Shown one piece after another: positions 15,006 through 49,176 of a DNA stretch of 64,000 nt. Positions within the stretch are counted from its first letter, which is position 1, and each line of letters opens with the position of its first letter. The notes beneath the pieces are model-generated. The model ran no database searches. It worked only from the letters and a program-made list of their open reading frames with translations, and was not told the DNA's origin. Source of the DNA: an uncultured Clostridia bacterium (lineage in GTDB: Bacteria > Bacillota > Clostridia > UMGS1883 > UMGS1540); the NCBI GenBank assembly GCA_937966555.1, contig CALCLY010000036.1, positions 122,116 to 186,115 of the forward strand, in the 5' to 3' direction. A program made the position numbers and the translations under genes.

Positions 15006-15049
15006 ATGTATAGCGAAAGCAGCAGATTGCGGTCTGCTGCTTTTGTGGA

Positions 15050-28664: not shown

Positions 28665-28692
28665 ATTTATATCCTCCTTTTGATGTGATGTT

Positions 28693-32687: not shown

Positions 32688-33236
32688 TTATTCTTTATAG
32701 TCTGTTATATCCCATATATCGGGTGTACATATCAGCCTGCCGTTTTCATCCGTATCAAGCGTGATTTTGTGTCCGCCGCGTATGACGATATAAATTTCAA
32801 CATTGCCGCCGCAGTTTATTATATACGGTGTGCCGTCATCTGCTTTTTGCAAATTTTTCTTATCGCCGTTTTGAATCAGCTCGTTTTCCTCTCCGTACCG
32901 CGGAATAACAAGATACCATTTTTCTCCGCCGTAATCATAATGACTGATTGCCCGGCGTTTTTCCTCGGAAAGCTCCGAAAAAAGCTTTTCTATATATTCA
33001 TTTGCCGTATTTTTGCCGGTTTCTCCCTCTCCGAGATATGCGACCGCCCAATAGGGATAGTCCTCGATTTCATCGAACGGAAGAGTATTTGCGTATTCTG
33101 TACGATGCTCACTGTCAACATACACCATGCCCGGTCCGTCCAGTATAAAAGGGTTTTCTCCGGGAGCCCTGCATCCGAAAAGACCGGCAATAACCGTAAA
33201 TATCGCAATTGCTTTCATCAGCCTTACCTTAATCAC
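32688..33236 (-). CDS. hypothetical lipoprotein (start may be the internal Met at 33218, MKAIAIFTVIAGLFGC)
   Basis: Signal peptide plus lipobox LFGC. No family recognised. Confidence 0.45.
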   Translation of the reverse strand: MIKVRLMKAIAIFTVIAGLFGCRAPGENPFILDGPGMVYVDSEHRTEYANTLPFDEIEDYPYWAVAYLGEGETGKNTANEYIEKLFSELSEEKRRAISHYDYGGEKWYLVIPRYGEENELIQNGDKKNLQKADDGTPYIINCGGNVEIYIVIRGGHKITLDTDENGRLICTPDIWDITDYKE

Positions 33237-34417: not shown

Positions 34418-34432
34418 GTTTTGCACCTCCCG

Positions 34433-35302
34433 CTACTTTATTTTGGCTTCCGCATCGTCCGCGCGTCTTGTGTAAACCGCCATGCCGCCGGTCGCTGCGT
34501 CATTCATAGCATTTATGCCTTCCTTCAGTTTTTCTTTGTCTGCCTCCGTTATGGCTTCCTCACCTTTTGTTGCAGCCTTAAAAGCCGTTCCGAATGCCGC
34601 CGCCATTCCAATCGCTGCCGCATCCTCTCTTTTTTCCGCCTTGCTTCTGCCGAAGCCGAATAACCCTCTTTCGTCATCGTGAACGCCGAAAATATAGTCA
34701 AAATGCTGCTTTGCATTGTGCGCATATTGTACGTCTGAACGATTGTTCTTGCTGAAGCAGATTTTAAGCTCCTGCTTAATATAAGGGTGAGGACGCAGTC
34801 CTTTTTTGTTATCCGTATTCACCCTGCTCATATTTCCGCCCAACAGTTTGATTTTCAAGCCGCAGCCCTTAAACTCGGGCTGTTTGCCCGGCTCGGTTGC
34901 GGGTGTTTCATCTACATATTCCTCATAGCTTGCCACCTGATCGTAGCGGAAAAGCTCTTTCATCTTGCCTCTGCTCGTGTCGCTTCTGTATACAATTCTG
35001 AACATTCCCAGCTCGTCGCAAAATTCAATGCCCATATCATTAAGCGTGGACGGATATGTGCTTTTTTTGCCCTCCTTTGAGTAAACCTCTTCAAACAGTC
35101 TGTTCTGGCGCTTCATGTACTCAATGTGTCCCTTGATTTCGTCAAGCGTAAGCTCGCTTAAACGAATGTATTTTGAACACAGGTTTCCGCATTCGCTGCA
35201 GATAAATTCCTTGTTCTTGATTTTCGAGCGGTGCATCACGCCACACTCTTTGCCGCATAGTGCGCAGGTTTTTTTACCGAAAATATTTTTAAAGAATCCC
35301 AT
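34433..35302 (-). CDS. zinc-ribbon protein (N-terminal CALCGKEC...CSECGNLC) with C-terminal Ala/Gly-rich tail
   Basis: 289 aa. CxxC pairs at the N-terminus. No TM segment. Confidence 0.5.
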   Translation of the reverse strand: MGFFKNIFGKKTCALCGKECGVMHRSKIKNKEFICSECGNLCSKYIRLSELTLDEIKGHIEYMKRQNRLFEEVYSKEGKKSTYPSTLNDMGIEFCDELGMFRIVYRSDTSRGKMKELFRYDQVASYEEYVDETPATEPGKQPEFKGCGLKIKLLGGNMSRVNTDNKKGLRPHPYIKQELKICFSKNNRSDVQYAHNAKQHFDYIFGVHDDERGLFGFGRSKAEKREDAAAIGMAAAFGTAFKAATKGEEAITEADKEKLKEGINAMNDAATGGMAVYTRRADDAEAKIK

Positions 35303-35320: not shown

Positions 35321-36100
35321 TTAATAGCTTCCGCCCCTGCCGCCGTGGGTTTCGCCCGACGACGATGTGTGGGTTCCGGAATTGTTTTTTTGTTTTTCCG
35401 TTTTTGTGACCGTACTGTAAAGAAATATATCCCTTGAATCATGCATATTCATGCTTCCGGGCTTCATGTAATCGGACGCATAATCCTGTTTTACGGCTGT
35501 TTTCATTTTTTCCAGCTGCTTTTTCGTCATGTAATACGCCAGAAGCAGCGGAAGGAGCAGCGCTCCGCCGATTACGCAAAGAAGGTAGCCTAAGGTATAC
35601 TGTTTTTCGTTAAAGATATTGCCGCTGCTTGCCATGCCCAGAAGCTTTTCCGATTGTTCGAAAAACGCCTCTGCCGCGGCATCGAAGTTATCCTCCTTGA
35701 GAAAGGGCAAAACTTGTTTTTCCATATACGCCAAGCCGTTTTTATTAAAATATTTGATACCCTTGCCGTGTGTTGAGAAATGATACGCTCTCGGCATTTC
35801 GGAAATGTAAAGAATAATACCGTCTTTTTCCGCGCCGCAGCCGTAGCCGCCGTAGTCGAAAATATCGTCTGCGCGGCTTTCCGCATCATCGCCCGACATG
35901 TATTCCTCCGTGTATATCGCTACGTCAAAATTGTATTTGCTTCTTATTGCGTCGGCTTTTTTCGAGAGCTTGTCAAATTCGCTTTCCGACAAAAGCTCCG
36001 CCTCGTCCGTAATCGACGGATTTGCAAAATCCGCAAGGGCTCCGAAAGCCGACGTAAGCAAAAGAATAGCCGCCAAAAACGATAAAAGTATTTTTTTCAT
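35321..36100 (-). CDS. TPM-domain protein (YdjH-like), signal peptide and C-terminal TM
   Basis: ATG at 36100 with GAGGAGG RBS. Signal peptide MKKILLSFLAAILLLTSAFGALA. TPM-like core (ITDEAELLSESEFDKLSKKADAIRSKYNFDVAIYT). Confidence 0.6.
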   Translation of the reverse strand: MKKILLSFLAAILLLTSAFGALADFANPSITDEAELLSESEFDKLSKKADAIRSKYNFDVAIYTEEYMSGDDAESRADDIFDYGGYGCGAEKDGIILYISEMPRAYHFSTHGKGIKYFNKNGLAYMEKQVLPFLKEDNFDAAAEAFFEQSEKLLGMASSGNIFNEKQYTLGYLLCVIGGALLLPLLLAYYMTKKQLEKMKTAVKQDYASDYMKPGSMNMHDSRDIFLYSTVTKTEKQKNNSGTHTSSSGETHGGRGGSY

Positions 36101-36113
36101 GCCTGCCGCCTCC

Positions 36114-37193
36114 TCAGTGTAACAGGAAATATGCAATTACCGCCGCAGCAACGTACGCGATGCCTGCAATTTTCGCAAAATATATGTTTTTCTTCTTTTT
36201 GTCAACGGGGTATTCTCCCACCACCTTGCCCGTCTGCCCGTTTATGGCGAATTTGTACATTGTATTCATGTACTTGATGTTGAGCATCCACACCGGAAGC
36301 AGCGAATATCTGATTTTACCGCCTGAAAAGCTTATTCTCGTGCTTTCGGGAATTACCGCCGCATAGCCGCCCGTGGTTTCACGAAATACCGAAACCGTCG
36401 ATGCCTTGACGCGCTCGTTTGCTCTTTCTATGCTATCCTCCGCCGTAACGTCGTATTTGTCCGCCAGATATCCCGAAAGATACGCTCCGTTAAAAACGAC
36501 GGCGTCCTCGTAATTGAAGGGCTCGACAGCCTCCATATATGCGTTGTCCGCCTTTTTCGAGCCGTCAACGGGGATATTGGCAAAGCCGACGCTGCCGCTT
36601 CTGAAAAGTCTGTAATAATCGGTTTTTGTATAATTGTAGCTCGAATCGCTCCAGCTTGTAACCCTCTGCGCGCTGTATGTAATCGCCGCGTTGCAGTCGC
36701 AGTCAAACATCCAGAACGGTACGTAAACACCTGCCATTTCTTCTATTTTCTTTTTTACCTTAAATTCGTCCGGCAGAAACGGCGCATTTTTAAAATCATC
36801 TTCAAACGCCGCCGTTGCCGCTTTTTTATCCTTTTTGAACGGAATGATGTAATCGGGGCGGAGCGTTCCCTCAAACTGTCCCTTGATTACCGCGGCGTCG
36901 CCGCAATAAGGGCATACGGTAGAGCCCATGGTGTCATCGCCCGTTATTTCAGCGCCGCATGAAGGGCAGGTGTAGCTTGCAAGATCAATTTCTCCGTCCG
37001 CTTCATAATTTCTCGGCTCGTAGCTCTCCCAGTCATATTTTGATTCACCCTGCATTTCGGCGTTCGCATCGTCGATTTGCCGCATAGCGTCAAGCTCAAA
37101 ATTGTTTCCGCAGGAATCGCAGTGCAGCGATTCGTTTTTGAAAACCAGCGCAGCTCCGCAGCAGGGACATTTATAGCTTTGTACAGTTTCCAT
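36114..37193 (-). CDS. double zinc-ribbon protein with C-terminal TM anchor (YdjG-like)
   Basis: CPCCGA...CDSCGN and CPSCGA...CPYCGD, then a globular domain, then IAGIAYVAAAVIAYFLL TM. Confidence 0.5.
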   Translation of the reverse strand: METVQSYKCPCCGAALVFKNESLHCDSCGNNFELDAMRQIDDANAEMQGESKYDWESYEPRNYEADGEIDLASYTCPSCGAEITGDDTMGSTVCPYCGDAAVIKGQFEGTLRPDYIIPFKKDKKAATAAFEDDFKNAPFLPDEFKVKKKIEEMAGVYVPFWMFDCDCNAAITYSAQRVTSWSDSSYNYTKTDYYRLFRSGSVGFANIPVDGSKKADNAYMEAVEPFNYEDAVVFNGAYLSGYLADKYDVTAEDSIERANERVKASTVSVFRETTGGYAAVIPESTRISFSGGKIRYSLLPVWMLNIKYMNTMYKFAINGQTGKVVGEYPVDKKKKNIYFAKIAGIAYVAAAVIAYFLLH

Positions 37194-37263: not shown

Positions 37264-37653
37264 CTATGCCTTGTTTTTTGCCGCTCCGATTATGTATAAA
37301 ATCGGAACAATCAAACCCGAGGCATAACTCATGATATTGAATTTGCTGCCGACTACGTTTGACATAACGTTTCCGGCTACGCTGAGCAGAGCCACAATAA
37401 CGCCCATAACAAGGCACGCCTGTGCCTTTTCCGGCTTCTCGCAGTTTTTCACGCCCATAATCCCCGCTATCAGCTGGAACACGGCGCCGGCGAGAATAAG
37501 AACACTTGCAAGCGTCAGAGTACCCGTGCTTGTGTCAAGCAGCGCCGCCATTGTTGCCACACTGACAAGAGCGACAATACCTCCGATGATACCGAACGCG
37601 CTGCCGATAATCATCAGAATTCCCGTGACCTTCAAAAATTGCTTTCCTTTCAT
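37264..37653 (-). CDS. small multi-pass membrane protein (129 aa)
   Basis: Four hydrophobic segments. RBS AAAGGAGG. Confidence 0.5.
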   Translation of the reverse strand: MKGKQFLKVTGILMIIGSAFGIIGGIVALVSVATMAALLDTSTGTLTLASVLILAGAVFQLIAGIMGVKNCEKPEKAQACLVMGVIVALLSVAGNVMSNVVGSKFNIMSYASGLIVPILYIIGAAKNKA

Positions 37654-37712
37654 ACCGAACCTCCTTTAAAAAATATTTATATCTGTTTTTTCAAAAAGAT
37701 ATGACAAACGTG

Positions 37713-40700
37713 TTATTCCACCGTTACGACATCGCAGAGCGGCTGCATACCTTGGCTTTCGTGTCCCCAGAGCATAAGCTTGTAAACGTATCCGTCGCCG
37801 GGAGTGCCTTTTAAATAGTAATCCTCCCGATTAACATATTTTATAAGGTAATTTACAAGATTTCCGTTTGCGTCATACTTGGCGCTGTGAAGCCTTGCGC
37901 TGCTGTCAGGTGCAAAGCCGATTACGGTGTTAAGCTCTTTGTTGTAGCTGATAAAGGCTGCGTCCTCCGGCGCAATCAGCGCATACCATGCGTTCGGCAC
38001 ATCGCCGGGGTCTGACATGACATACGACAAATCGCTGCTGTTTTTTGCTCCTACGACTTTCATGGGAGAATATTCGCTTTGCGTAAACATCTGCGTAAAT
38101 GCCTTAAAGCTTGTGCCGTTGTAATTTCCCCAATAAATTTCCGTTATGCCGTAAGCAAGCATCGTTTTGCCGTCAAACGCGGTTTTGCAGTCCCTCACGC
38201 TCAGCTTTTCGGCAAGATTTTCGATTTTCGTGGCTTTTATGCCCTTGTCATACGTCAGCTTGCCCGCACCATTGATTGTGAGTGTTCCGCTGCCGTAAAA
38301 AGAAACCTTGCCTCCGCACAGAATACCCACGGCATCTATAGTGTCCGCTTCGATGATACTGTTTCCCATAAGCTCTATGTCAAGGTCGCCGTTTGCATAA
38401 ATTCCGACAGATTCCGCCGTGGCGTAAATCGGATGCGTATCAATATGCGCATTGTTCAGCGTCAGCTTTGCGGGAGACATTGATGTTTCCGGAGTAAAGC
38501 TTACCGCTCCTCCAAACAGCGCCTCGGCATTGTCCTGCGTGATGCTTTCGCCACCCACCGTTATTATAGGTTCGGCAAATACCGCATAAAGCGAAAGCCC
38601 CATAGGTACGAAAACCTCATCTCCCGGCAGATAATCCACCGTTTTGCCGTTTCTGTCGACAGTCCAGCCCAAAAAGCTGTATCCGTTTTTTATCGGACGA
38701 ACATTGGGCAGAATTACTTTATTATACATTTTCATCCGTATGGTTTTATACGGCTGGCTGCCGGCTTCTCTTTTATCGAACAGGAAGAGAACCGTGCTGC
38801 TCTGCATATCGCTTTTTGTAAACGAATTGACAGCAGACGGCTGATATCCGCACTTGGCGCAGGTTTTGCGATACAGCCCGTCTACGGTGTCGGTTGCTTC
38901 TCTTAAAAGCTCATATTTGTAGATGTGTTCTTCGTCCTTCTTGTACGTCACGGTATTTCCGCTCTCATCCTCGTAGCTGCAGCGGCTGCATATAAGGCTG
39001 TGGTTTGTACCGTCCTTCGGGGTGCACGAATCAAATATATGCCTTACAGAGTGACTGACAAGGTTGCCGTTTACCCCTTTTGTAACTTCTTCGCCGTTTA
39101 CCTTTACAACGCATCTGTATGTTTCGCTTTCCGGCATCCTGTTTGTTATGACAAATCCCGGCGTCTCATAGCCGACAAACATGCCGACGCCTACCCCATA
39201 ATCAACAAGCTGTTTTATGCTGATAAACGCCGAATCCTGTTTAAGCTGCCAGTCATATGTAACCGTTGCCCCCTCGGGCGCGCACACCTTGATGTGGAAT
39301 GCGGCGCTCCTGTCACACTCCGTAACAACCTTGTCTGTAAGGTTTTCGATAAAGGGCGCGGTTTCCGTTCTCCCGATATGCACCGGAAGATATTTGCTCT
39401 CGTCGCCCGACGTCACCGTCAGCGTAAAGCTTTTTTCCTCCGTTGCCGCGGACGGGTAAACGCCGGTGATATAACGATTGCCTGTGATTGAAAGCCCGTA
39501 AGCTGCAAATTCCGCATCGCCCGTCACCGTATAGCTGTCGGCACAGCTTATATAATTTTTCAAATCAACATTGATGGAAGATCCCGAAACACCTGCCGGA
39601 ATTTCGACGGGCTTCAGGTTATATACTTTAAACTCCGAAGCTTCCGCGCAAGTATATTCACGTCCGATGTATATGTCCCTTGAAGGCTTGGAAAGATGAT
39701 TCTCAACGGAGACATCGTTTATATACAGCTTTGTTTCCGCCGTAAACCAGGCGTCACCCGTGGCTTTTTCATAGGCGCCGTATTCGTATACGGTATTTTC
39801 GGTATATTCCTCCAATAAGCTGTATTCGGCTTCTCCCGCAAACAGCGCGTTTTGTGCCTCATTGTCCGAAATAATATTCCCGTCATCGTCTTCATAACTC
39901 TGCATTACGGTATACTCCGATGTTCCGAGAGGATAAAAAACGGGTTTTCTGCCCGGCATCGGCTCGATATTGTAAAGCCGCAGCTCTTTTATTATCGGCT
40001 TCCATTGCGCGTAGATTGTCGTATCCTTATTATATACCCTGCCGAGGTCAACCCGTTCGCCGCCTTCGGGCTCGGTATACCAACCCTCAAGATAAAACCC
40101 TTCTCTGTTGATAACGGTGTGGTCATAATGTAAACTCATAATCGTTCCGTCAATCCCCGTCTGCATCTCAAGCGTTGCGGCGCCGGCAGCGCCCACAAAG
40201 CTGCCGCCGTTTGTGTCAAGCGTTATCGTGTTTGGCTTCGGACTTTTGATTGTGTATTCGAACGTAACGCTCGGTTTGTTCACTCCCACGGTGCTTTTTC
40301 TTATCGCTCTCGGCGGCGCGCCGTCCGTCAGCAGTATCTGAGTATTCCGACTCATGCCGAAGCCTTCCTCAAAATCAAACGTCACCGTCAGCGTGCAGCG
40401 GGTTGTGTTTTTAAAACTCGTTGCATTGACATAGCTTTTTTTAATGGGGTCATATACCTTCCATTTAATCCCCCATATGCTGTAAGGTCTGCCGGCAGAC
40501 ACCTTTACCGCCTGCGTCAGCTCCTCTACCGAGCTGTTTGGCCCGGGCTGCTGCACGCCCATAAGCTCAAGCGAATCCAAATAATTCTTCCTAACTCCTT
40601 CGGTGCACAGATTTTTTGTTTTTATATACAGATACCCGGCATAATAGTCTATGTTTTCTTGCGGCACAGGCTCATCGTCAATATAAAACGCGGTACTGCT

Positions 40701-41033
40701 GTTTACCACATAATTTCCGTTTTTGATGATCACTTTAAAACGGTAATAATACTCTGTGCCGCTGTCAAACGGGTCATAATTTGAACTCAGCTTTGCATCG
40801 TCGCAAGCCCTGTACCACTTTCCCTCATCAATCTTTAATATCTCGTCGGAACCGGGACAGGTTAATTTAACAGGCGCTGCTTTGACGCCTTTCTTAATGC
40901 TTACCTCGCTCATCCCCTCAAACCTCACTTCGGGTATAACGGTTTGAGCCGCAAGCGTTGTCTGCGGCAAAACGCCCAAAAGCACTGCCGCGCAAAGAAC
41001 AGCCGAAAAAAGCCTGCCCTTTTTTATTTTCAT
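37713..41033 (-). CDS. large secreted protein (~1106 aa) with Listeria-Bacteroides-type repeats and His/Cys motifs shared with the upstream Cys-rich giant
   Basis: ATG at 41033 (AAGGAG RBS). Signal peptide MKIKKGRLFSAVLCAAVLLGVLPQTTLAAQT. GW-type repeats (EGFYLEGWYTEP, NGYSFLGWTVD). H..C..C motifs (TNHSLICSRC, CAKCGY). Confidence 0.6.
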   Translation of the reverse strand: MKIKKGRLFSAVLCAAVLLGVLPQTTLAAQTVIPEVRFEGMSEVSIKKGVKAAPVKLTCPGSDEILKIDEGKWYRACDDAKLSSNYDPFDSGTEYYYRFKVIIKNGNYVVNSSTAFYIDDEPVPQENIDYYAGYLYIKTKNLCTEGVRKNYLDSLELMGVQQPGPNSSVEELTQAVKVSAGRPYSIWGIKWKVYDPIKKSYVNATSFKNTTRCTLTVTFDFEEGFGMSRNTQILLTDGAPPRAIRKSTVGVNKPSVTFEYTIKSPKPNTITLDTNGGSFVGAAGAATLEMQTGIDGTIMSLHYDHTVINREGFYLEGWYTEPEGGERVDLGRVYNKDTTIYAQWKPIIKELRLYNIEPMPGRKPVFYPLGTSEYTVMQSYEDDDGNIISDNEAQNALFAGEAEYSLLEEYTENTVYEYGAYEKATGDAWFTAETKLYINDVSVENHLSKPSRDIYIGREYTCAEASEFKVYNLKPVEIPAGVSGSSINVDLKNYISCADSYTVTGDAEFAAYGLSITGNRYITGVYPSAATEEKSFTLTVTSGDESKYLPVHIGRTETAPFIENLTDKVVTECDRSAAFHIKVCAPEGATVTYDWQLKQDSAFISIKQLVDYGVGVGMFVGYETPGFVITNRMPESETYRCVVKVNGEEVTKGVNGNLVSHSVRHIFDSCTPKDGTNHSLICSRCSYEDESGNTVTYKKDEEHIYKYELLREATDTVDGLYRKTCAKCGYQPSAVNSFTKSDMQSSTVLFLFDKREAGSQPYKTIRMKMYNKVILPNVRPIKNGYSFLGWTVDRNGKTVDYLPGDEVFVPMGLSLYAVFAEPIITVGGESITQDNAEALFGGAVSFTPETSMSPAKLTLNNAHIDTHPIYATAESVGIYANGDLDIELMGNSIIEADTIDAVGILCGGKVSFYGSGTLTINGAGKLTYDKGIKATKIENLAEKLSVRDCKTAFDGKTMLAYGITEIYWGNYNGTSFKAFTQMFTQSEYSPMKVVGAKNSSDLSYVMSDPGDVPNAWYALIAPEDAAFISYNKELNTVIGFAPDSSARLHSAKYDANGNLVNYLIKYVNREDYYLKGTPGDGYVYKLMLWGHESQGMQPLCDVVTVE

Positions 41034-41154
41034 ACAATTCAGCTCCTTTTTTCTTTCGGCGCGCGGCAGCTGCCGCGCTCCTACTGCTTTTTTTATGATT
41101 GTTTCTCCGTCGGCCGGGCCGCAAAATGCCGTAAGCCCGACTTGCATATTGGTT

Positions 41155-44100
41155 TTATGAGCCTGTTATTTTCAGTCTTGCCGAAGGCAAAAGAGGTTTT
41201 ATGTTCTTGTCATAGTTAAACATAAACGCTCTTATCTCATCCGCATCCGAAATATTCAGCTCAAGGGTGCCGACGGAAGCGTCGAGTACCGGCATATCCA
41301 TTTGGCGGATAAATTCTCTTTTTATGTCAATCATCCGTCCGTTTTTGTAGCTTGCTATCCAAATATAGGCAGAGAGTCCGCCGTTGGAAGCGTGGATGCA
41401 ATACTCACCGTTTTTCTCGAACAGCTGCAAGACAGGTTTTTCGGTAAGCTTCGGAAGCGTTACATCCTCTTCGTAAAGGCATACGGAGCAGACATGATGG
41501 CCGATTCCTTCCTCGGTCAAAGTCGGTTTTTTGGGAAATACCATCTGATTGTAGCGGTGAGGAATCACGCGGAGCTTTTCGGAGCAGTCCGGACTCTCGC
41601 ATTCCAGCCAGTGACTTGTTTCGTCGTGCTCATATGAACTGTTGACAAAGGAACAGACATGCGTCAACGCTGCTATCGGCGCGGTTTGTTCGTTCCAGCA
41701 GCCGGCTTGCGAGCAGATGCGTTTCTTAAGGCCCGGCGCAGCTGCTGTCGGTGCCGTAACGGTCACCCAGTCGCTGTATGTATGGCGAACATAGGAGTTG
41801 TCGGAACGTCCGCAAGCTTCGTCGGAGCAAGTATTCCAGTGCGCAATGTTGTCATGCGCCACCACGGTGAAGCTGTGCGTATGCGGTGCGGAAAGCTTGG
41901 GAATGCTCTGCTTCTGCCTTGTTAAGCCGCAGTCGGCACAGTAATAGGTCTGCTCGCCCTCGGCGTCAACCGTAGGCTCCTTGGTGGTTTTCCAATAACC
42001 CGGTGTGTGCGACTGCAAATAAAATTCTTCGTAACAGTTTTTGCACAGTACCATATGTCTGTCTGTCCGACTGCCTGTATATGCCACACTATTTCTGTAC
42101 TCATAAGACGAGGTGTCATGCTGAGGAATAATGCGAATCGGATTGGACTGCGCCGTGCCGCCGTCGCCGGTAACAACGCAGACAAACATGAATTCATCCT
42201 CATATCGCAAAACCTCGCCGCACATGGCGTCATACAGCCCAACGGTCAGCGTATCGGTTTTTGTGCCCGCATGACCGTTTTCGGGGTGTTCCTCTATGTC
42301 GGGAACTTTATACAACTTAACATCTCCGTTGGCATCGTAATAAGCGTTGTACCACTGATAAGTAAGATTGTTGCCGCGCGCCTTGACCGAAAGCTTTACG
42401 AAGTTGTCGTCGCGTCCGTGTCTGTAGGTCGGCTTTATTTCGGCAGGCGACTGCCATGTGATGCGCACGGGGCGGATCCTTCCGCAGGCAACGCAGGAGT
42501 CGCCGTGGCGCCAGTCGTGTGCGCCGATATTCACGCGCTTGCCGCCGTCGGGGCAATCAGAATTGGAGCAGATCTTCCAATGCTGCGTTTCGTTCATCTG
42601 CCACTCATCCGTTTCGTGCGGCAGGTTGATAAAGAACCGCACGTCGCTGTTGTAGTATGCCTCATAATTTCCAAGCTCGTTATGTGCGCGCAGGATAAAT
42701 TCGTATCTGCCGCACTGACCGTACAAGTGCTTGAACAGACGTTGGCACTGCGGCTCCTGTAAATCCAAAATAACGCTGTCTTTGGTATAGGTTACCAGCT
42801 GCTGGGCATACATATTCCAAAACGGCGTGCTCTGCTGCGGATTTATCTTCATCCCCGTTTCGGGGTCGATAATCGACATCTTTACATTTTCGCCGCATAG
42901 CAGCGTATATGGAATTACCAGTTTTTCACCGAATATCGCCGTAAATTCGTCCGCAGCGTAATATTTTTCTTTGCCGTTGACATATGTAACGTAGTCCCAT
43001 TCAAGATCTTTGCCGCCGACCGTATCAATTGCCGGCGCGGCAATTTTCTTATAATAACAGTTCAAAGCGCCGCAGGCATAGGGGTTCTTCGAGAAATCGT
43101 GCGTTGTTTTTGTGCTGGCTTTTACATCGCCGCAAAGGCTGCATTGCCTCCAGTGATGCGTTGCGTTATACGCCAGCACTTCACTGCCTTCGCACGTTCC
43201 GTTTACGCAGGCGGACGAAACACTGCTTGTTTTTCTCAAAAAGTATCCGCAGTCAAGGCAGTTGGAATGTATGATTGCAATAGGTTTTCCGAAAACTTCG
43301 GAAAAGTTTTCACGAACCCATTCTCCGAATCTGTGTCTGTTTTGGTTCATCGCCATACCGCAAATGGTACAGGTCTGATAATGTCTGTTGACGTCCCCCT
43401 GTACATAGGTGCTTCCCGGCGTATGCGTATGTGCGCCGTGGGAGCATTTCGAGAAGCAGGTTCCGTGCGATGTGCAATAGTGGTCGACCCATTTCGGGTC
43501 GCTCGGACATATGTCGTTTCCGCAGGAGCAGGGCGTTGCCGCCTTGCAGCAGACAAGGCACTTGCCGCAGTATTGGCACATCTCGCCGGGCGCAAAGCAC
43601 TTATTGCACGTTTTGCAGAAATGCTTGCTCCAGCCCGAGGAGCCCGGGCAAACGTGTGTATGCGTGCATTGCTCCTCCTCGCGCATCTGATTGCAGCAGC
43701 CGGCACAGCCGCCGCAGATGTTACACAAAACCTCTACACAGCCGCCGTGTTCCTCGCAGTAATGGCTTCTCCATTCGCTTCCTTCTATACATATGCCGTG
43801 TTCGCAGCCCAGAAAATCTGCGTTGCTTAAACAGCAATTCAGACAGTAGCCGCAGTCAGGGCAAAACTCATTATCCTCAAAACAGTTGCCGCAGTTGCCG
43901 CAGCGGTGGGTATCCGCGTCCCACTCCGTGCTTTCAACGCATATGCCGTGGTCGCAGCCATTCCTCTGACTTTCGTTAAGGCAGCACTCTGCGCAAAGGC
44001 TGCAGTCATCACACATCTCATCTTCTTCAAAGCAGTTTTCGCAGGATTGGCAGCGGTGAGAATAATCGTCCCAGTCGCTGCTTTCCACGCATATATCGTG

Positions 44101-45129
44101 GTAGCAGCCGTTTTCTTCGCTGGTTCTGCGGCAGCATTCCTCGCATTTTTCGCATTCGTAGCAGAAATTTTCGCACGAGCTGCAGTAATCTCCGCAATCA
44201 GAGCAAAGTATGTAGCCTTCGTAGTTACACTGATTACAGTTTTCACAAATCCACTCCCAGCACTTGTCGCAGTGATCCCCGTCCTCGCAGCGTCTGCCAT
44301 ATTCTTCGGGGCAAGCGCCGCAGTTGGGGCAAATATCGCTCGGCTCCCAGTCGCAGCAAAAGCCGCAGCTGCCGCAGCTTTGGCAGATTCTGTCGTCTTT
44401 TTCGGCGCAATTTTCGCACATTTCGCAGGTATCGTGGTATTCATATGCACAGCTGTTACATTCCGTACAGTGATCATCCAGCCAGCAATCCCTACACCTA
44501 TCGCATTCCCGGCAGATGACGCCGTCCGTAACACAGTTGTTGCACTTTTCGCAACCTTTACAGAAATCGTCCTCCGATTTACATTGGTTGCAGGCTGACA
44601 AACAATCCTGGCAAACGATTTCCAGACAGCAGCCGAGAGTTGCGCGGCAGGTCTTGCACATATCCTCCTCCTCAAACCCTCCGCTCCCGTAAAGGCAGGT
44701 CAGACACTCGTCGCAGTACGGGCACATGGCGCCGTTCGTCCGGCGGCAGTCTTCGCATACATTACAGCCGCTGCAAATGTCTCTGCCGCATTCTCCGCAA
44801 TACCTGCAGTGGTCGTTTTCGCCGCATTCGATACAATTCCAGCATTCGGTGCAGTATTGGTTTTCGCTCAAATCGTTAAAGCATGCGCCGCAGCTGTGGC
44901 AATGAGTGATTTCAAAACAGTCGCTTCTGCAGTCCTCCGTACAGCGGCCGCAGTTTCCGCAGCAATAGCTGTCCCAATGATAGTGACCGCAGCTTCCGCA
45001 GTTCTGACCGTCGGAATAGTCTGCAAATGCCGTAAAGCTGAAAATGGCTGCTAAAAGGACAACGGCAAAAAGAATAACGGCAAAAAGAACAACGGCATGT
45101 TTCACATGATTTCTTTTCATAATCTTCAT
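41155..45129 (-). CDS. giant secreted cysteine-rich protein (~1324 aa): signal peptide, ~500-aa tandem CxxCxxC(xxC) array, then repeated HxWxxCxxxxC modules
   Basis: ATG at 45127-45129 (GAGAGG upstream). Signal peptide KRNHVKHAVVLFAVILFAVVLLAAIFSFTAFA|DYSDG. The N-terminal half is saturated with CxxCxxCxxC units (CTECWNCIEC, CPYCDECLTC, CKGCEKCNNC, CRECDRCRDC...) and ~50-aa repeats (NGCYHDICVESSDW..HRCQSCENC...). Later motifs include HHWRQCSLCG, HWKICSNSDC, AHWNTCSDEAC and SHWLECESPDC. Confidence 0.6.
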   Translation of the reverse strand: MKIMKRNHVKHAVVLFAVILFAVVLLAAIFSFTAFADYSDGQNCGSCGHYHWDSYCCGNCGRCTEDCRSDCFEITHCHSCGACFNDLSENQYCTECWNCIECGENDHCRYCGECGRDICSGCNVCEDCRRTNGAMCPYCDECLTCLYGSGGFEEEDMCKTCRATLGCCLEIVCQDCLSACNQCKSEDDFCKGCEKCNNCVTDGVICRECDRCRDCWLDDHCTECNSCAYEYHDTCEMCENCAEKDDRICQSCGSCGFCCDWEPSDICPNCGACPEEYGRRCEDGDHCDKCWEWICENCNQCNYEGYILCSDCGDYCSSCENFCYECEKCEECCRRTSEENGCYHDICVESSDWDDYSHRCQSCENCFEEDEMCDDCSLCAECCLNESQRNGCDHGICVESTEWDADTHRCGNCGNCFEDNEFCPDCGYCLNCCLSNADFLGCEHGICIEGSEWRSHYCEEHGGCVEVLCNICGGCAGCCNQMREEEQCTHTHVCPGSSGWSKHFCKTCNKCFAPGEMCQYCGKCLVCCKAATPCSCGNDICPSDPKWVDHYCTSHGTCFSKCSHGAHTHTPGSTYVQGDVNRHYQTCTICGMAMNQNRHRFGEWVRENFSEVFGKPIAIIHSNCLDCGYFLRKTSSVSSACVNGTCEGSEVLAYNATHHWRQCSLCGDVKASTKTTHDFSKNPYACGALNCYYKKIAAPAIDTVGGKDLEWDYVTYVNGKEKYYAADEFTAIFGEKLVIPYTLLCGENVKMSIIDPETGMKINPQQSTPFWNMYAQQLVTYTKDSVILDLQEPQCQRLFKHLYGQCGRYEFILRAHNELGNYEAYYNSDVRFFINLPHETDEWQMNETQHWKICSNSDCPDGGKRVNIGAHDWRHGDSCVACGRIRPVRITWQSPAEIKPTYRHGRDDNFVKLSVKARGNNLTYQWYNAYYDANGDVKLYKVPDIEEHPENGHAGTKTDTLTVGLYDAMCGEVLRYEDEFMFVCVVTGDGGTAQSNPIRIIPQHDTSSYEYRNSVAYTGSRTDRHMVLCKNCYEEFYLQSHTPGYWKTTKEPTVDAEGEQTYYCADCGLTRQKQSIPKLSAPHTHSFTVVAHDNIAHWNTCSDEACGRSDNSYVRHTYSDWVTVTAPTAAAPGLKKRICSQAGCWNEQTAPIAALTHVCSFVNSSYEHDETSHWLECESPDCSEKLRVIPHRYNQMVFPKKPTLTEEGIGHHVCSVCLYEEDVTLPKLTEKPVLQLFEKNGEYCIHASNGGLSAYIWIASYKNGRMIDIKREFIRQMDMPVLDASVGTLELNISDADEIRAFMFNYDKNIKPLLPSARLKITGS

Positions 45130-45131
45130 AA

Positions 45132-45419
45132 TCAAATCGCCTCTCTTTCATGAATTTGCTTTGCTCCGCACATGGGGCAATACTCCGCATCATTAGGGAG
45201 AACATTTTCACATTTGGTGCAGCAACGATGCTTTGCTCTGTAAATATCAAAAACTGTTTCCTCCGGCAGTTTTGTCTGACAAACTTTGCAAAACTTGTTT
45301 TTTGCAGCCTGCGCATTTCCGCAGCACGGGCAGATTTTAAACCTTTTCATATTTTGGGTGCCAAAACCGAAATGCTCCAAAACATCTTTTCTTAACGGTC
45401 TATATCTCGTCACTCTCAT
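45132..45419 (-). CDS. double zinc-ribbon protein (~95-107 aa)
   Basis: CPCCGN...CKVCQ and CTKCEN...CPMCGA. The start is probably the ATG at 45419 (GGAGGAG 5 nt upstream). The stop lies 2 nt from the start of the giant gene. Confidence 0.45.
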   Translation of the reverse strand: MRVTRYRPLRKDVLEHFGFGTQNMKRFKICPCCGNAQAAKNKFCKVCQTKLPEETVFDIYRAKHRCCTKCENVLPNDAEYCPMCGAKQIHEREAI

Positions 45420-45783
45420 CAGCTCCTCCATATAATAGTTTTTTGCCGCATACAAAGCAAATTATATCTCCGTTTTTTGCTTTTGCGCCGCAGTGCTTGC
45501 AATACTTTGCTTCTTCCTCAAGAGGAGCACAATTCACGCACATAAGCATATCCGGATTATATACAATCGAATCAACCCATCTGCCGCACAAGTGGCATAA
45601 ATTAAAATTTTTCTTGCCCTCCGCTTCCCATGCCGCCGAAAGCTCTGCCTCGAAATCGTCTGCATAATACTTTCCTGTGGTACAGACAAGCTTTCCCGAC
45701 AATTCACAGAAAAAGCTGTAACGGTTTCCGCCATGTGACGGAATAATTTTGTATGCAGCCGTTTTATGCTTCTCATTTATCAT
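45400..45783 (-). CDS. zinc-ribbon protein (~127 aa from Met at 45783; longer TTG-initiated ORF to 45873 possible)
   Basis: CHLCGRW...CVNCAP and CKHCGA...CFVCGK. The RBS GAGGAGG lies 8 nt upstream of ATG 45783. Confidence 0.45.
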   Translation of the reverse strand: MINEKHKTAAYKIIPSHGGNRYSFFCELSGKLVCTTGKYYADDFEAELSAAWEAEGKKNFNLCHLCGRWVDSIVYNPDMLMCVNCAPLEEEAKYCKHCGAKAKNGDIICFVCGKKLLYGGADESDEI

Positions 45784-46087
45784 ACGCCTCGCCTCCTCTC
45801 TGAAAAACTTATAAACCCGTTTCTTTTGCACAAACCTACGCAAATTATCCGCAAGCCGTTGACTAATTGCCAAAAATGTGATATACTTGTGATGGATAAA
45901 TCTGCTAAAAAGGAACCCGTCTTTTTATTTAAGAAACTGCGATTACTTTATAATAGGTTGAAACACATACGTAAAAGAACGCCTCTTTATCTTTTTTTTG
46001 CAGATAATTCTTTCCGGTGCTGCAAATTGTTGTTTTTACATGTTTTCATTATACATAAAAATATCTTTTTGTCCCCATACTTTTTGC

Positions 46088-46158
46088 CAAAAGTATAGGA
46101 TGAATTTCAAAAAAATCAGGTTTTTTTAAAAAAGTAGGGGGAAAAGTATAGGAGAATT
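46088..46158 (+). promoter_or_regulatory. two direct repeats AAAGTATAGGA(T/G)GAAT spaced 52 bp apart upstream of the solute-binding-protein gene; candidate regulator binding sites
   Basis: caaaagtataggatgaat at 46088-46106 and gaaaagtataggagaatt at 46141-46158. Confidence 0.35.
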
Positions 46159-46235: not shown

Positions 46236-47558
46236 ATGCAACCTGTAAAAAAAATTTTTTTATTTTTACTCATTTTCAGCATATTGGTATGCTGTCTTTC
46301 CGGCTGCAAAAAATCGGAACTTGATAAAAACAAGCCCGTTACGCTTACAATGTGGCACGTTTACGGAGAACAAGCGGATTCGCCGATGAATCGGCTTATT
46401 GACGAATTTAACGAGACAGTTGGCATGGAAAAAGGCATTATTATCAATGTCACGGCAATGTCCAACGCCTCCAAAATAGGCGAAAAACTGCTTGACGCAC
46501 ATAATAAGATTCCCGGTTCCGCCGAAATGCCCGACCTTTTCTTTGCACACAAAAGCAACGCGCTGGAGCTTGGAACGGATTGTTTACTTGACTGGAACGA
46601 ATATTTTTCCGAAAAAGAGCTTTCGGCATACGTTCCGGGGTTTTTGGAGGACGGCACGGCAGACGGAAATCTGTCCGTGTTCCCGGTTTCCAAATCCACG
46701 CATCTTTTATTCATCGCCGGAGGTCAGTTTGAACGCTTTTCAGCCGATACGGGCGTTACATATGAAGCACTGTCCACATGGGATGGGTTTTTCGATGCTG
46801 CCGCGAAATATTATGACTGGTCGGGCGGAAAACCGTTCTGCGCTCTTGATTATCCGCTGCGCGCCATTGAGCTTGCGGCTACGGAAAGCGGCGCAGGAAA
46901 TATTTTTGCCGACAACGGATTCTATGACCCGTCAAACGTGATTTTTAAGCAAACCTTCATGAAATTTGCGGATTCGCTTGCAAAAGGGCATATTATGCTT
47001 TCAAATCTCTATTCAAACACACAGGTGATGACAGGCGATGTTGTAGCCGGCATAGGCTCGTCCGCCGCAATTCTTTACTATAATGATACCGTGACATATG
47101 AGGACGGAACGAGTGAGCCGATGGAGCTGGAGATACTGCCTCTGCCCGCTGAAAACGGAAAAAAGCCGTATATCACGCAAGCCGGAGTCGGTCTTTGCGC
47201 ATATAAAACATCAAGTCAAAAAGCAGAGGCTGCAGTGATTTTTGCCAAATGGCTCACCGAGCCGGAGAGAAATCTTGAGTTCGTATGCCAAACAGGTTAT
47301 ATGCCCGTTACAAACGGTGCATTTGACAAAATAGACGACTGCCATTTCAAGACAGCCGATTATGAAAAACTTTATGCAGCCCTAAAAAAAATTAAGGAAA
47401 GCTCGGAGGTTTTATCGGAACAGCAAAGTCCCGAATATTACAGCAGAGTTTACGCATTTTACGATTATTTAAGAAACGAACAGAAACAATTTATATTAAG
47501 CAACACGCCGCCCGAAGCACTTGCCAATGGACTTTGGCAAAAGCTCTGCGAAAAATAG
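46236..47558 (+). CDS. ABC-transporter-type extracellular solute-binding lipoprotein (family 1), orphan (no adjacent permease/ATPase)
   Basis: Lipobox LSGC. SBP_bac_1-like sequence (…VTLTMWHVYGEQ…). The next gene is a regulator, not a permease. Confidence 0.75.
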   Translation: MQPVKKIFLFLLIFSILVCCLSGCKKSELDKNKPVTLTMWHVYGEQADSPMNRLIDEFNETVGMEKGIIINVTAMSNASKIGEKLLDAHNKIPGSAEMPDLFFAHKSNALELGTDCLLDWNEYFSEKELSAYVPGFLEDGTADGNLSVFPVSKSTHLLFIAGGQFERFSADTGVTYEALSTWDGFFDAAAKYYDWSGGKPFCALDYPLRAIELAATESGAGNIFADNGFYDPSNVIFKQTFMKFADSLAKGHIMLSNLYSNTQVMTGDVVAGIGSSAAILYYNDTVTYEDGTSEPMELEILPLPAENGKKPYITQAGVGLCAYKTSSQKAEAAVIFAKWLTEPERNLEFVCQTGYMPVTNGAFDKIDDCHFKTADYEKLYAALKKIKESSEVLSEQQSPEYYSRVYAFYDYLRNEQKQFILSNTPPEALANGLWQKLCEK

Positions 47559-47571
47559 ACGGGGGATTATT

Positions 47572-49176
47572 ATGCAAATATCGGTAAGAAACAAAAGACA
47601 ATCTATGCAAAAAAAGCTGTTTGGATATATGTTTATCCTGGCTATCGTTTTATTGCTTATATTTGCGGCTTTTCTTTTCCTGTTCGGACGTTTTTCGACA
47701 ACCGAGGATAAAATATCGGATATATTAAGCCTTCAGATTGAGTTTTTCGACCGTGAAATGACGGCTTACTACAATAATATTACCTTGCGCGGCGCACAGC
47801 TTTCCGAAAAAGCCGCGCAGCTTACCGAGCAATATCTCAATTCGGAAAATACAGATTTTGGCGGCGTTCAAAATTCTTCTTTGCATATCAACGCTCTTGA
47901 GGAACGCTATATTGATTTATTGAAGAACGAGCTTTTAAAGGCAAGCTGTTCCGGCGCTTTTATTCTGATTAACGCATCTCAAACCGGCGAAAGCGGTTCA
48001 AAAGCAGGCGTGTACCTTAATCAGGATCTGTTCGGAACAACGGACAAGGAAACAATGCTTCTTTACAGGGGAAATGTGAAGGCTGCAATAAACAAAGGCA
48101 TTATGCCTCACCGAAAATGGCATTTGGAATTTGACACCGGGGGATTCCCAAATTTTGAAGAAGTTCTTTCGGATACCGCCGAGCCGATTGAAAAAGCCTC
48201 TCACATTTGTAATATTATAATGCTTCCCGGAACGTCGGAGCATGTTATGCTTGTAGCGCTTCCTATCAGAGGCGACGGCGGCCGCGTTTACGGCATCTGC
48301 GGCTTTGAAGTAAACGAAAGCGTTTTTAAGTCCGCACACGCACAGCCGTCCACGCTTCCGCACATAACCTGCATATTCTCCCGCTCGGACGATAAAGAAA
48401 TCAATATCAAAGAGGGATTAAGCTGCGGAGCAAAAAACGGATATTTTCTTGCACCTAAGGATTCCCTCAAAATCAAGCCGCTGAAAAAGGGTCTTGTCGC
48501 TTTAAAAAATGAATACGGCGCATATATTGGCATGACGAGAAACACAACTCTTTATTCCGAAAACACACCTTATTCGATTACGGTTATGATGCCGTATGCG
48601 GATTATTCCGAGCTGGAAACGAAAAACACCATACAGCTTATACTCATAATTCTGATTTTGGGATTTGCTGTTTTAAGCCTTAGCCTGTATTTTTCAAAAC
48701 GATTTATCCTTCCGATAAAAAAATCGCTTGACAAAATAAAGCAATCCGAAAAGACATATTCCGACGAAAGTCAAAGCGGTATTATGGAAATTGACGACCT
48801 TTTTGCATTTCTTGCCGGAAAGGATAACGAATATCAAAAAATCTTCGATGAGCATTCCGAAAAAAACGAGAGTCTGCAAAGCGAGATTGAACGCATCAGA
48901 ACCGAAAACAAGCGTCTGATGAAAGAGCATAAAAATATCATCATACAGGATGATTATGATCATTTCTGTTCTGGTTTACGCAGCCTTACTCCCAAGGAGA
49001 GAACAATATTTGACCTCTATCTGGAGGGAAAAACCGTTCCTGAAATTTTACAGATTGCAAAAGTTAAAGAGAGTACACTTAAATACCATAACGGCAATAT
49101 TTACAGCAAGCTCGGCGTTTCCTCAAAAAAGCAGCTTCTTAATTTTGCGGCACTGTATGCACAGGAAAAAAAATAA
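47572..49176 (+). CDS. membrane-anchored transcriptional regulator: two TM segments flanking an extracytoplasmic sensor domain, coiled coil, C-terminal LuxR/GerE-type HTH
   Basis: ATG at 47572 (GGGGGA RBS). TM LFGYMFILAIVLLLIFAAFLFLF and IQLILIILILGFAVLSLSLYF. C-terminal LTPKERTIFDLYLEGKTVPEILQIAKVKESTLKYHNGNIYSKLGV. Confidence 0.6.
   Translation: MQISVRNKRQSMQKKLFGYMFILAIVLLLIFAAFLFLFGRFSTTEDKISDILSLQIEFFDREMTAYYNNITLRGAQLSEKAAQLTEQYLNSENTDFGGVQNSSLHINALEERYIDLLKNELLKASCSGAFILINASQTGESGSKAGVYLNQDLFGTTDKETMLLYRGNVKAAINKGIMPHRKWHLEFDTGGFPNFEEVLSDTAEPIEKASHICNIIMLPGTSEHVMLVALPIRGDGGRVYGICGFEVNESVFKSAHAQPSTLPHITCIFSRSDDKEINIKEGLSCGAKNGYFLAPKDSLKIKPLKKGLVALKNEYGAYIGMTRNTTLYSENTPYSITVMMPYADYSELETKNTIQLILIILILGFAVLSLSLYFSKRFILPIKKSLDKIKQSEKTYSDESQSGIMEIDDLFAFLAGKDNEYQKIFDEHSEKNESLQSEIERIRTENKRLMKEHKNIIIQDDYDHFCSGLRSLTPKERTIFDLYLEGKTVPEILQIAKVKESTLKYHNGNIYSKLGVSSKKQLLNFAALYAQEKK

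Follow-up and report, generated by a model that had tools for sequence, protein, structure and literature searches.

Which part of a tightly packed gene run forms a functional unit, and which part is only carried along? This question is raised by a 64-kb stretch of contig CALCLY010000036.1 (the window), which belongs to an uncultured human-gut Clostridia lineage and carries four genes on its minus strand, here called A, B, C, and D. Genes A and B encode small zinc-ribbon proteins, C encodes a cysteine-rich giant, and D a second large secreted protein (Table 1). The initial annotation had taken the four genes as a dedicated system of cytoplasmic zinc-ribbon factors and two exported giants, leading into a ydjGHI-like membrane module. 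In this work, the operon and its ydjGHI-like context hold, but the dedicated four-gene system does not. With moderate confidence we favor the view that the region is an envelope operon of the ydjGHI type, without PspA and under LuxR-type control, in which A-B would be the conserved core and the giants swappable cargo. The four genes would then be the 5' part of an operon of ~20 kb (~45.8 to ~28.7 kb, minus strand).

The evidence for this view comes mainly from the co-occurrence of the genes across genomes. An alignment of A was used to collect 70 loci in species-representative genomes, and all proteins of the window were compared with these loci by tblastn; counts are given over the testable loci of the 70, and individual loci are cited by L number. 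Most of the loci are from metagenome-assembled genomes (MAGs) of Clostridia (Oscillospiraceae, Acutalibacteraceae, Ruminococcus, and others), with a complete chromosome for one of these MAGs, and a cultured relative, 'Acetivibrio sp. MSJd-27' (L024), is also included. B was adjacent to A in 66/68 loci. A gene with a LuxR-type helix-turn-helix (HTH) was found divergently upstream of A in 46/57, and an SBP_bac_8 gene was also present there in 43/57. The content downstream of B was much more variable. The first gene after B encoded a giant of at least 700 amino acids (aa) in 13/36 loci, and a Cys-rich giant in 4/36, plus five truncated loci. In distant genomes, B stands directly before YdjG (L038, L047, L049), Band-7 (L042, L044, L054), DUF4428 (L010, L051, L057, L061), or giants that are not Cys-rich (L012, L033, L035, L055). 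The co-occurrence check proposed earlier for the four genes therefore confirms the A-B pair, but C and D are not conserved with it.

The same variability was observed among near-identical relatives, in which the idea of zinc-ribbon factors dedicated to two giants breaks down. In genomes with an A 81-97% identical to that of the window, only C comes after B in L014, L016, and L020, only D in L015, L019, and L021, and neither of them in L017 and L025. Nucleotide comparison of L015, L019, and L021 revealed a deletion scar, in which the signal-peptide codons of C run into a stop codon that is followed by D. The remnant open reading frame (ORF) of C has 19-27 codons (e.g., MKKFLSLCIVFIMLMTLLPITAIAAH and stop), and homology resumes at window positions 41057-41068, in the right half of the spacer palindrome just ahead of D. 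The C-D spacer is the right-hand breakpoint of the C deletion in all three. In L017 and L025, the scar consists of B, the last ~35 codons of a giant (ending in DKIFLWENLKTLRPLCDAYTVNK and stop), and then the gene of a membrane protein with four transmembrane helices (4-TM). The order C-D is confined to the lineage of the window (L001, L085, L086), while the second slot position elsewhere holds He_PIG-type giants of 842-1342 aa or nothing. Furthermore, C is ~80% identical in L087 and L031, where it stands behind an A-B pair only ~57% (L087) and ~46% (L031) identical, and the A, B, SBP_bac_8, and regulator genes of these loci are 46-68% identical to those of the window. As C is far closer here than the genes in front of it, cargo exchange between species at the B/C boundary is indicated.

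Because near-identical relatives have lost C or both giants and retain the scars, the giants are, as far as these comparisons reach, accessory and swappable cargo rather than dedicated partners of A and B. The invariant unit in these genomes is the regulator, the predicted operator-promoter region, and A-B, and the giants fill a variable slot between B and the membrane module. Judged by domain content, the YdjGHI-like module is the usual downstream content of A-B loci. We hypothesize that the giants ride in the operon for co-expression with envelope maintenance and vary under strain-level selection on the cell surface. In 21 loci of species-representative MAGs (L062-L082; labeled Acutalibacteraceae, Eubacteriales, Clostridia, Oscillospiraceae, and one Lentisphaeria), a nearly unchanging A-B pair, 44-45% identical to the window's A, lies on short contigs. 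These contigs mostly end within ~1.5 kb past B, which suggests a systematic difficulty in assembling the cargo region downstream, as it is repetitive or strain-variable.

The closest companion of A-B is the divergent regulator. It is predicted to be membrane-bound, with transmembrane (TM) helices at residues 37-55 and 373-391 enclosing a ~315-aa extracytoplasmic domain, followed by a coiled coil and a C-terminal HTH. In lineages that lack the pair of SBP_bac_8 protein and 2-TM regulator, the divergent gene encodes a ~365-aa LuxR protein with seven TM helices (7TM) and the same HTH. Counterparts of the A promoter (GGGACA-N16/17-TATAAT) precede A by 70-370 nt in most distinct loci, including those with A identities as low as 41%. 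The opposing promoter is retained as TTGAC(T)-17-TATAAT at the plus-strand position in 33/71 loci scanned, across lineages, and both divergent promoter positions are conserved across lineages. The divergent transcripts would overlap in antisense by ~150 nt in their 5' untranslated regions (UTRs), as the A promoter lies near the SBP_bac_8 gene and the promoter of the latter near A. The perfect palindrome at the -35 element of the A promoter is the sole zero-mismatch copy in the window, and its center is ~45 bp upstream of the inferred transcription start. Equivalent palindromes occupy the same place in distant loci (CCTATAC/GTATGGG, CCGTCC/GGACGG, CCCCACC/GGTGGGG, and CCCTAC/GTAGGG), so the arm sequences differ by lineage while their complementarity is kept. 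We propose this palindrome as a candidate operator for the divergent LuxR-type regulator, which probably controls the envelope operon. The regulator would sense an extracellular cue, bind the palindrome at about -45, and activate one long polycistronic transcript.

A different element was observed in many distant relatives (A 44-56% identical), where a structured leader RNA of ~150 nt, probably pseudoknotted, directly follows the -10 box of A-B. Its invariant loops are AAGGAGGGTATA and GCGCGCCAACGA, and copies are located at L036:2503-2648, L037:7876-8019, L039:3561-3706, L043:9750-9904, L044:4089-4243, L045:2626-2782, L046:9769-9928, L047:1060-1214, L049:9778-9921, L050:1728-1879, L055:9440-9590 and 9792-9942, and L061:3529-3684. 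In the alignment, 87.8% of the cells are paired, compared with 42-61% when the partners are slid. Compensatory changes were found in 12 pairs, with a covariation score reached by 0/500 shuffles. The covariance model detected further copies (L044, 78 bits; L050, 58 bits), all on the A strand. This RNA had no match in Rfam even at E <= 1 and is a candidate for a cis-regulatory element of a new, riboswitch-like kind. The A leader of the window lacks this RNA and likewise gave no match in Rfam.

B exceeds the gathering cutoff of the Pfam family DZR (PF12773; 34.3 bits against 27.3, E = 2.7e-8, residues 42-97). A scores 25.7 bits, just under this cutoff, yet it contains four CxxC pairs that form two CxxC...CxxC zinc ribbons, and the eight cysteines (C63, C66, C82, C85, C95, C98, C109, C112) are invariant across 23 homologues. 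The conserved N-terminal domain of A has a beta3-alpha arrangement with the motif HKTAAYK...Y.FFC..SG, which is invariant or nearly so in the same homologues. The absence of any hydrophobic segment in A or B makes a cytoplasmic location plausible for both. The earlier description of two cytoplasmic double zinc-ribbon proteins is thus secured for B by the family cutoff and is probable for A, with its invariant cysteines and a score below this cutoff, while the compartment stays at plausible. When A and B were compared with the zinc ribbons encoded by YdjG, DUF4428, and Band-7, a sequence relationship was set aside, the similarity being at the CxxC level only. We infer that the partner of A and B is the conserved sub-membrane, zinc-ribbon-rich complex or the regulator, and not the giants. 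Probably they would be soluble zinc-ribbon adaptors of the YdjG/DUF4428/Band-7 complex under the membrane, serving the conserved part of the operon.

Instead of such adaptors, A and B could be regulatory partners of the LuxR-type regulator (a feedback anti-activator or co-activator pair) or read-through factors for the long operon. Indeed, A-B are linked most tightly to the divergent LuxR-HTH gene and to the promoter/operator region that they share with it, and transcription of the operon always begins with A-B. In addition, the arrangement of the two promoters implies antisense overlap, and zinc ribbons are common in transcription factors. On the other hand, no DNA-binding or RNA-polymerase-binding domain was recognized in A or B. 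Moreover, three loci (L024, L026, L057) keep A-B without an adjacent regulator, L024 together with the palindrome, and in divergent regulator-target pairs, which are common, the target need not regulate. We regard a regulatory role as fairly unlikely and retain the adaptor role.

In another view, A and B would serve the giants exclusively from within the cytoplasm, for example as zinc-handling holdases or export chaperones acting before Sec export, and the four genes would make up a self-contained system. A metagenome scan with the alignment of the Cys-rich domain recovered 18 close C orthologues (at least 78% identical), and all 18 have A-B directly upstream with the same tight spacing. The order A-B-Cys-rich giant was found again in the distant L058, L036 and L039 carry a Cys-rich giant further along an A-led operon, and A, B, and C are all built round CxxC motifs. 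However, none of the 28 distant relatives in the same scan (28-37% identical) has A-B upstream, and A-B was also absent near three further distant Cys-rich giants on inspected contigs, giving 31/31 distant giants without the pair. Most A-B loci lack a Cys-rich giant, relatives with a near-identical, intact A-B have lost C, D, or both, and D is confined to one lineage. The association recurs but is far from obligatory, as L058 has to be set against the 31 distant giants. We consider a dedicated role for the giants quite improbable, and the tight spacing by itself had misled the earlier reading.

The packing of the run is that of an operon. The four gene models on the minus strand were confirmed by ORF listing and reading of the junctions, the same products were called independently on an identical human-gut metagenome contig (L001), and a Shine-Dalgarno sequence precedes each gene. 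The initial annotation described gaps of 2-8 nt or short overlaps, which is correct for A/B (20-nt overlap, with the B start codon inside the 3' end of A) and B/C (2 nt) but not for C-D (121 nt). A and B are probably a translationally coupled pair, and the coupling would extend to C. From A onward the successive gaps are -20, 2, 121, 59, 70, 13, 18, 15, -4, 24, 24, 15, and -4 nt, so downstream of D the run goes on through the YdjG/TPM/Band-7 module with gaps of at most 70 nt. A terminator between the genes, which would have spoken against a single unit, was not predicted by a consensus scan of the gene strand in any intergenic gap of the run. Neither the C-D gap (fold z-score -1.1) nor the D-4TM gap (z-score ~0) is terminator-like or structured, and no T-run follows the palindrome in the C-D spacer. 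The spacer before the 4-TM gene (37654-37712) contains an AT-rich inverted repeat, ATATCT...AGATAT, with the counterpart ATATCCA...TGGATAT in relatives (L014:14730-14790; L017:4330-4400), in which the sequence differs and the complementarity is kept. A -35-like TTGTCA/TTGACA lies ahead of this repeat and an A/T run after it, and RNA folding of the spacer was predicted no better than for shuffles. The repeat may act as DNA, either as an operator or as an internal promoter that serves the membrane module.

Table 1. Features of the locus, with positions counted from the first nucleotide of the window
Feature	Position	Strand	Remarks
Membrane-bound LuxR/GerE one-component regulator	47521-49176	plus	551 aa; PF00196, E = 7e-11
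SBP_bac_8 lipoprotein	46236-47558	plus	divergent; lipobox LSGC; proposed extracellular co-sensor
Extra direct operator half-sites (candidate)	46127-46152	minus	CCTATACTTTT, CCCCTACTTTT
Candidate operator	46077-46096		perfect 20-bp palindrome ATACTTTT-N4-AAAAGTAT; overlaps -35 element of the A-operon promoter
A-operon promoter (predicted)	46048-46075	minus	GGGACA-16 nt-TATAAT; implies ~258-nt 5' UTR
Near-consensus TG-extended promoter (predicted)	45859-45887	plus	TTGACT-17 nt-TATACT; points to SBP_bac_8/regulator genes
Gene A	45400-45783	minus	127 aa; GAGAGGAGG upstream
Gene B	45132-45419	minus	95 aa; GGAGGAG upstream
Gene C	41155-45129	minus	1324 aa; secreted giant (predicted)
C, signal peptide	45022-45129	minus	cleavage between AFA and DY
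C, Cys-rich domain	43420-45021	minus	aa 37-570
C, four ~50-aa repeats	43450-44067	minus	within Cys-rich domain
C, H...CxxC modules and immunoglobulin-like regions	41410-43419	minus	
C, C-terminal beta-sandwich-like tail	41158-41409	minus	
C-D spacer	41034-41154	minus	121 nt; perfect 18-nt palindrome GCGCGGCAGCTGCCGCGC at 41061-41078
Gene D	37713-41033	minus	1106 aa; secreted protein (predicted); AAAAGGAG upstream
D, two Flg_new repeats	one at 40005-40229	minus	Pfam
D, H...CxxC modules	38829-39056	minus	one short, one long
4-TM membrane protein	37264-37653	minus	129 aa; conserved right border of cargo slot
YdjG-like protein	36114-37193	minus	359 aa; two N-terminal zinc ribbons, central domain, C-terminal TM helix
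YdjH-like TPM membrane protein	35321-36136	minus	PF04536, E = 8e-21, 74.8 bits (cutoff 22.1)
DUF4428 protein	34433-35302	minus	N-terminal zinc ribbon; PF14471, 28.8 bits (cutoff 27.8)
Secreted LRR_5 (BspA-type) and SLH wall-anchored protein	33233-34426	minus	Pfam
YdjI-like SPFH/Band_7_1 protein	31338-32663	minus	PF13421, E = 1.4e-17; C-terminal zinc ribbons

The most unusual cargo is the giant C. It contains 149 cysteines, 116 of which fall in residues 37-570 (21.7% of the 534-residue domain) together with 23 histidines. The domain is acidic (D+E 18.9%, K+R 6.4%). CxxC occurs 60 times there, compared with 24.9 +/- 3.9 in composition-preserving shuffles (2.4-fold enrichment), and CxxCxxC 32 times compared with 5.3 +/- 2.4. 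The ~50-aa repeats (residues ~355-560) follow the pattern CxxCxxC-x6-CxxCxxCxxCC-x8-CxHxxC, so each contributes 10 Cys and 2 His, i.e., 12 ligands, and CPxCG-type knuckles are also present in the domain. The C-terminal half of C contains at least seven short H[WY]xxCxxC knuckles and several longer H...W...CxxCG modules. The Cys-rich region matched nothing beyond generic zinc-ribbon noise in Pfam, NCBIfam, PADLOC, PHROGs, or PDB sequences. A multiheme cytochrome or a 4Fe-4S ferredoxin was ruled out for C; neither the heme motif CxxCH nor the cluster motif CxxCxxCxxxCP occurs in either giant, and no Pfam match was obtained. The AlphaFold model of the domain (predicted local distance difference test, pLDDT, 77) has almost no regular secondary structure, and its sole fold matches, all weak, are RING, PHD, LIM, FYVE, and RanBP2 zinc fingers.

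The relatives of C are few. A word-indexed protein search gave only five full-length homologues (84-29% identity) and 16 partial matches that have the N-terminal region in common. A HMMER scan of 1.84 billion 50%-identity cluster representatives found 102 proteins with the Cys-rich domain at E <= 1e-3, and the full-length matches are nearly all giants of 1000-3600 aa with the domain at or near the N-terminus. A signal peptide begins all but one of 21 C homologues, the exception being N-terminally extended or truncated, and relatives of C end in an SLH, dockerin, or TM anchor. Since the homologues carry signal peptides and C-terminal anchors, the Cys-rich domain would be extracellular and distal to the anchor. 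The predicted export of the Cys-rich giant is supported by its own signal peptide. No description of Cys-rich CxxC surface giants of Clostridia or Ruminococcus was found in the literature. Residues 37-570 of C represent a real, rare, and unannotated family of predicted extracellular domains.

For the Cys-rich domain, which has no family match, the most likely interpretation is an array of structural zinc sites (zinc knuckles) outside the cell, in view of its CPxCG-type knuckles and the anaerobic lifestyle of the organism. Both giants would leave the cell through the Sec pathway and be displayed on its wall. There, C would fold round many tetrahedral zinc sites made of CxxC knuckles, giving an acidic, rod-like surface domain in a distal position. 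A stronger version of this idea, which we hold to be rather improbable, is that the N-terminal ~530 aa of C are an undescribed class of extracellular poly-metal domains in strictly anaerobic gut Clostridia, i.e., rods with ~30 Cys4/Cys3His knuckle sites at the distal tip of wall-associated giants, with a metal-dependent function. If this were true, the domain could be a zinc/iron reservoir or scavenger at the surface, or a redox-sensitive structure that unfolds on oxygen, and a true functional tie of A-B to metal handling would explain why the pair stands ahead of Cys-rich giants in two distant lineages.

The giant might also be chiefly a metal-handling protein (an extracellular zinc/iron reservoir or scavenger, or a redox-active array), and not a structural or adhesive one. 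Its Cys and His residues would suffice for up to ~34 tetrahedral sites in a strongly acidic domain. In addition, the gene of the distant relative P0008 (2156 aa) divergently adjoins a ZnuA/ABC/ABC-3 zinc-uptake operon. A sortase gene follows the P0008 gene in L006 (the neighborhood is recorded at L006:4604-7707 and 14600-15463). However, the ZnuABC neighborhood was found in 0/46 further loci of Cys-rich giants, and a general link with zinc uptake was rejected, as ZnuA, ABC-3, and the other L006 neighbors are absent from all of these. Moreover, relatives join the domain with adhesin modules and anchors (Big_2, Flg_new, CBM_X2, dockerin, SLH), heme and Fe-S motifs are missing, and gene C is freely lost between near-identical strains. 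We give metal handling as the chief function little credence and keep the structural zinc-site array as the preferred interpretation.

D is also secreted according to its signal peptide (cleavage between LAA and Q), as described initially, and its only Pfam family is Flg_new (PF09479, the Listeria-Bacteroides or List_Bact repeat; E = 3.4e-14). The GW-type repeats reported for D are these Flg_new repeats. The GW modules of the Listeria InlB/Ami type (SH3-like, ~80 aa) were rejected, since the GW dipeptides sit in the GYxFxGW signature of Flg_new. D does contain the motifs TNHSLICSRC and CAKCGY, and its H...CxxC modules are found again in C, in the C-terminal half. Neither giant has an SLH or dockerin domain, an LPxTG-like motif, or a C-terminal TM helix. 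The earlier statement that SLH and sortase motifs are absent is therefore valid for C and D themselves, but two SLH proteins are encoded in the same run (33233-34426 and 25470-28808). The tail of D ends in KLMLWGHESQGMQPLCDVVTVE. A sorting domain shared by the C-termini of C and D was rejected, as BLAST between the tails was not significant. A loose tail motif, ...YDxxGK/R...(F/L)(L/M)W...(K/R/Q)P(L/M)C, is common to other slot giants. Slot giants end in a similar unannotated module, ...YDxxGK/R(M/L)...GD(K/R)IFLWE(N/S)L(K/E)T(L/M)(R/K)P(L/M)C..., located in the window at 41158-41409 (C) and 37713-37940 (D), at L012:4603-8475, and in the giants of L033, L088, L090, L091, L097, and L099; the version in D is recognizable and that in C weaker. 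This module could be a lineage-specific wall-association or sorting domain.

After D, the run encodes the 4-TM protein, the YdjG-like protein, the TPM protein, the DUF4428 protein, the LRR-SLH protein, a 182-aa lipoprotein-like protein, the Band_7_1 protein, a HEAT-repeat lipoprotein, and further proteins. All three YdjG/YdjH/YdjI domain architectures were found on the same strand, in agreement with the initial annotation. In the YdjG-like protein, CxxC pairs lie at residues 9-29 and 76-98, and residues 340-358 form a TM helix. The N-terminus of this protein, METVQSYKCPCC, compares with MIISYKCPNC from the ydjG cloning primer in PMC8581546. The YdjH-like protein has a signal/TM segment and a second TM helix, and the YdjI-like protein has CxxC pairs in residues 352-432. 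No Pfam match to PspA/IM30 was found among 18 run proteins scanned. At the far end of the run, a 1112-aa protein (25470-28808, minus strand) matches Flg_new with four repeats (E = 4e-48) and SLH with three domains (E = 2e-34), so the operon also encodes a classically wall-anchored giant. The G+C content of the ~26-46 kb block is 0.45-0.52, above that of the 20 kb to its left and right (0.33-0.43). If the block were a mobile, prophage, or defense island acquired horizontally, with incidental gene order, this would fit its higher G+C (0.37-0.42 in the flanks) and the mosaic distribution of cargo, but such an origin is extremely improbable, as the run has no integrase, transposase, or phage genes, PADLOC and PHROGs gave only weak zinc-ribbon matches for A-D (E above 1e-4), and the framework of regulator, A-B, and YdjGHI-like module is syntenic across many species.

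Several points weigh against an envelope operon with A-B as its core. YdjG, TPM, DUF4428, or Band-7 genes were found within 10 kb downstream in 14/23 loci, not in all. Internal promoters or attenuators could lie in the 121-nt gap between C and D or in the conserved AT-rich inverted repeat ahead of the 4-TM gene. In L058, a distant Anaerovoracaceae MAG (A 44% identical), A-B precede a 1399-aa giant with 21% Cys and a dockerin, so some preferential association of A-B with Cys-rich cargo is possible. The structure model of A is poor (pLDDT 62) and has no structural homologue. It is the gene neighborhood alone that suggests the adaptor role of A and B, and their specific biochemical role is the weakest link of the overall picture. 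Likewise, position and symmetry alone point to binding of the palindrome by the regulator. Finally, metal binding by the Cys-rich domain is deduced from its residues only, and the AlphaFold model, which contains no metals, does not separate zinc sites from disulfides.

The locus is a testable example of surface diversification in uncultured gut Clostridia. Here, regulatory and membrane components would form a fixed framework with one hot spot, in which giants are inserted, exchanged between species, and deleted between strains. Such variation bears on strain differences in adhesion, phage receptors, and host immunoglobulin A recognition. Three families need annotation: the A-B zinc-ribbon pair, the Cys-rich extracellular domain, and the membrane-bound LuxR regulator with its candidate operator, which makes the regulatory circuit testable. 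New here are the A-B family, the Cys-rich domain, and the well-defined candidate operator, while the system as a whole is a variant form of an envelope operon already known, and A and B are not dedicated to the giants.

Compared with known systems, the Cys-rich domain of C recalls the variant-specific surface proteins of Giardia, which form a CxxC-rich, zinc-binding surface coat and are switched in expression within a gene family. Like C, these proteins are exported, dominated by CxxC, variable between lineages, and contain ~11-12% Cys overall. On the other hand, they have no sequence or fold relation to C, the Cys-rich part of C is the N-terminal domain of a bacterial multidomain giant, and the variation at the window's locus is by gene gain and loss in one operon slot. 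C also resembles the interleaved RING, PHD, LIM, and FYVE fingers and the CxxCxGxG center of DnaJ in its paired CxxC knuckles and little regular secondary structure. With the surface giants of gut Clostridia (Flg_new, He_PIG, Big_2, SLH/dockerin), D and the C-terminal half of C share such modules and the H...W...CxxCG motif. Those giants are anchored, whereas C and D have no recognizable anchor and end in the C-terminal module common to slot giants.

LuxR-family activators bind a 'lux box', a palindrome of ~20 bp centered near -42.5, in class II activation. The 20-bp palindrome of the window overlaps the -35 element with its center ~45 bp from the inferred start, and the neighboring regulator has a GerE/LuxR HTH, which by analogy suggests a comparable arrangement. 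However, this regulator is predicted to be membrane-embedded (2-TM with an SBP_bac_8 lipoprotein, 7TM elsewhere) and has no autoinducer-binding or receiver domain. The closest likeness is to pspA-ydjGHI of B. subtilis. YdjG of the B. subtilis ydjFGHI operon contains two zinc ribbons, an NTF2-like domain, and a TM helix, YdjH a TPM domain, and YdjI a band-7 domain with a C-terminal zinc ribbon (PMC11237479). YdjG and YdjH anchor YdjI and PspA at the membrane, and cells without YdjG or YdjH show cell-shape defects and mislocalized cell-wall synthesis under alkali stress (PMC8581546). The window has the same three architectures in the same order, and the central domain of its YdjG-like protein may correspond to the NTF2-like domain. 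In contrast to the B. subtilis operon, the run lacks pspA, adds the A-B head and the DUF4428, LRR-SLH, HEAT-repeat, and 4-TM genes, and hosts a variable slot of giant secreted proteins. Furthermore, the B. subtilis operon is under sigma-W, whereas that of the window is paired with a membrane-bound LuxR-type regulator. Because the module architectures match and the extras differ, the window appears to carry a variant of the ydjGHI-type envelope operon.

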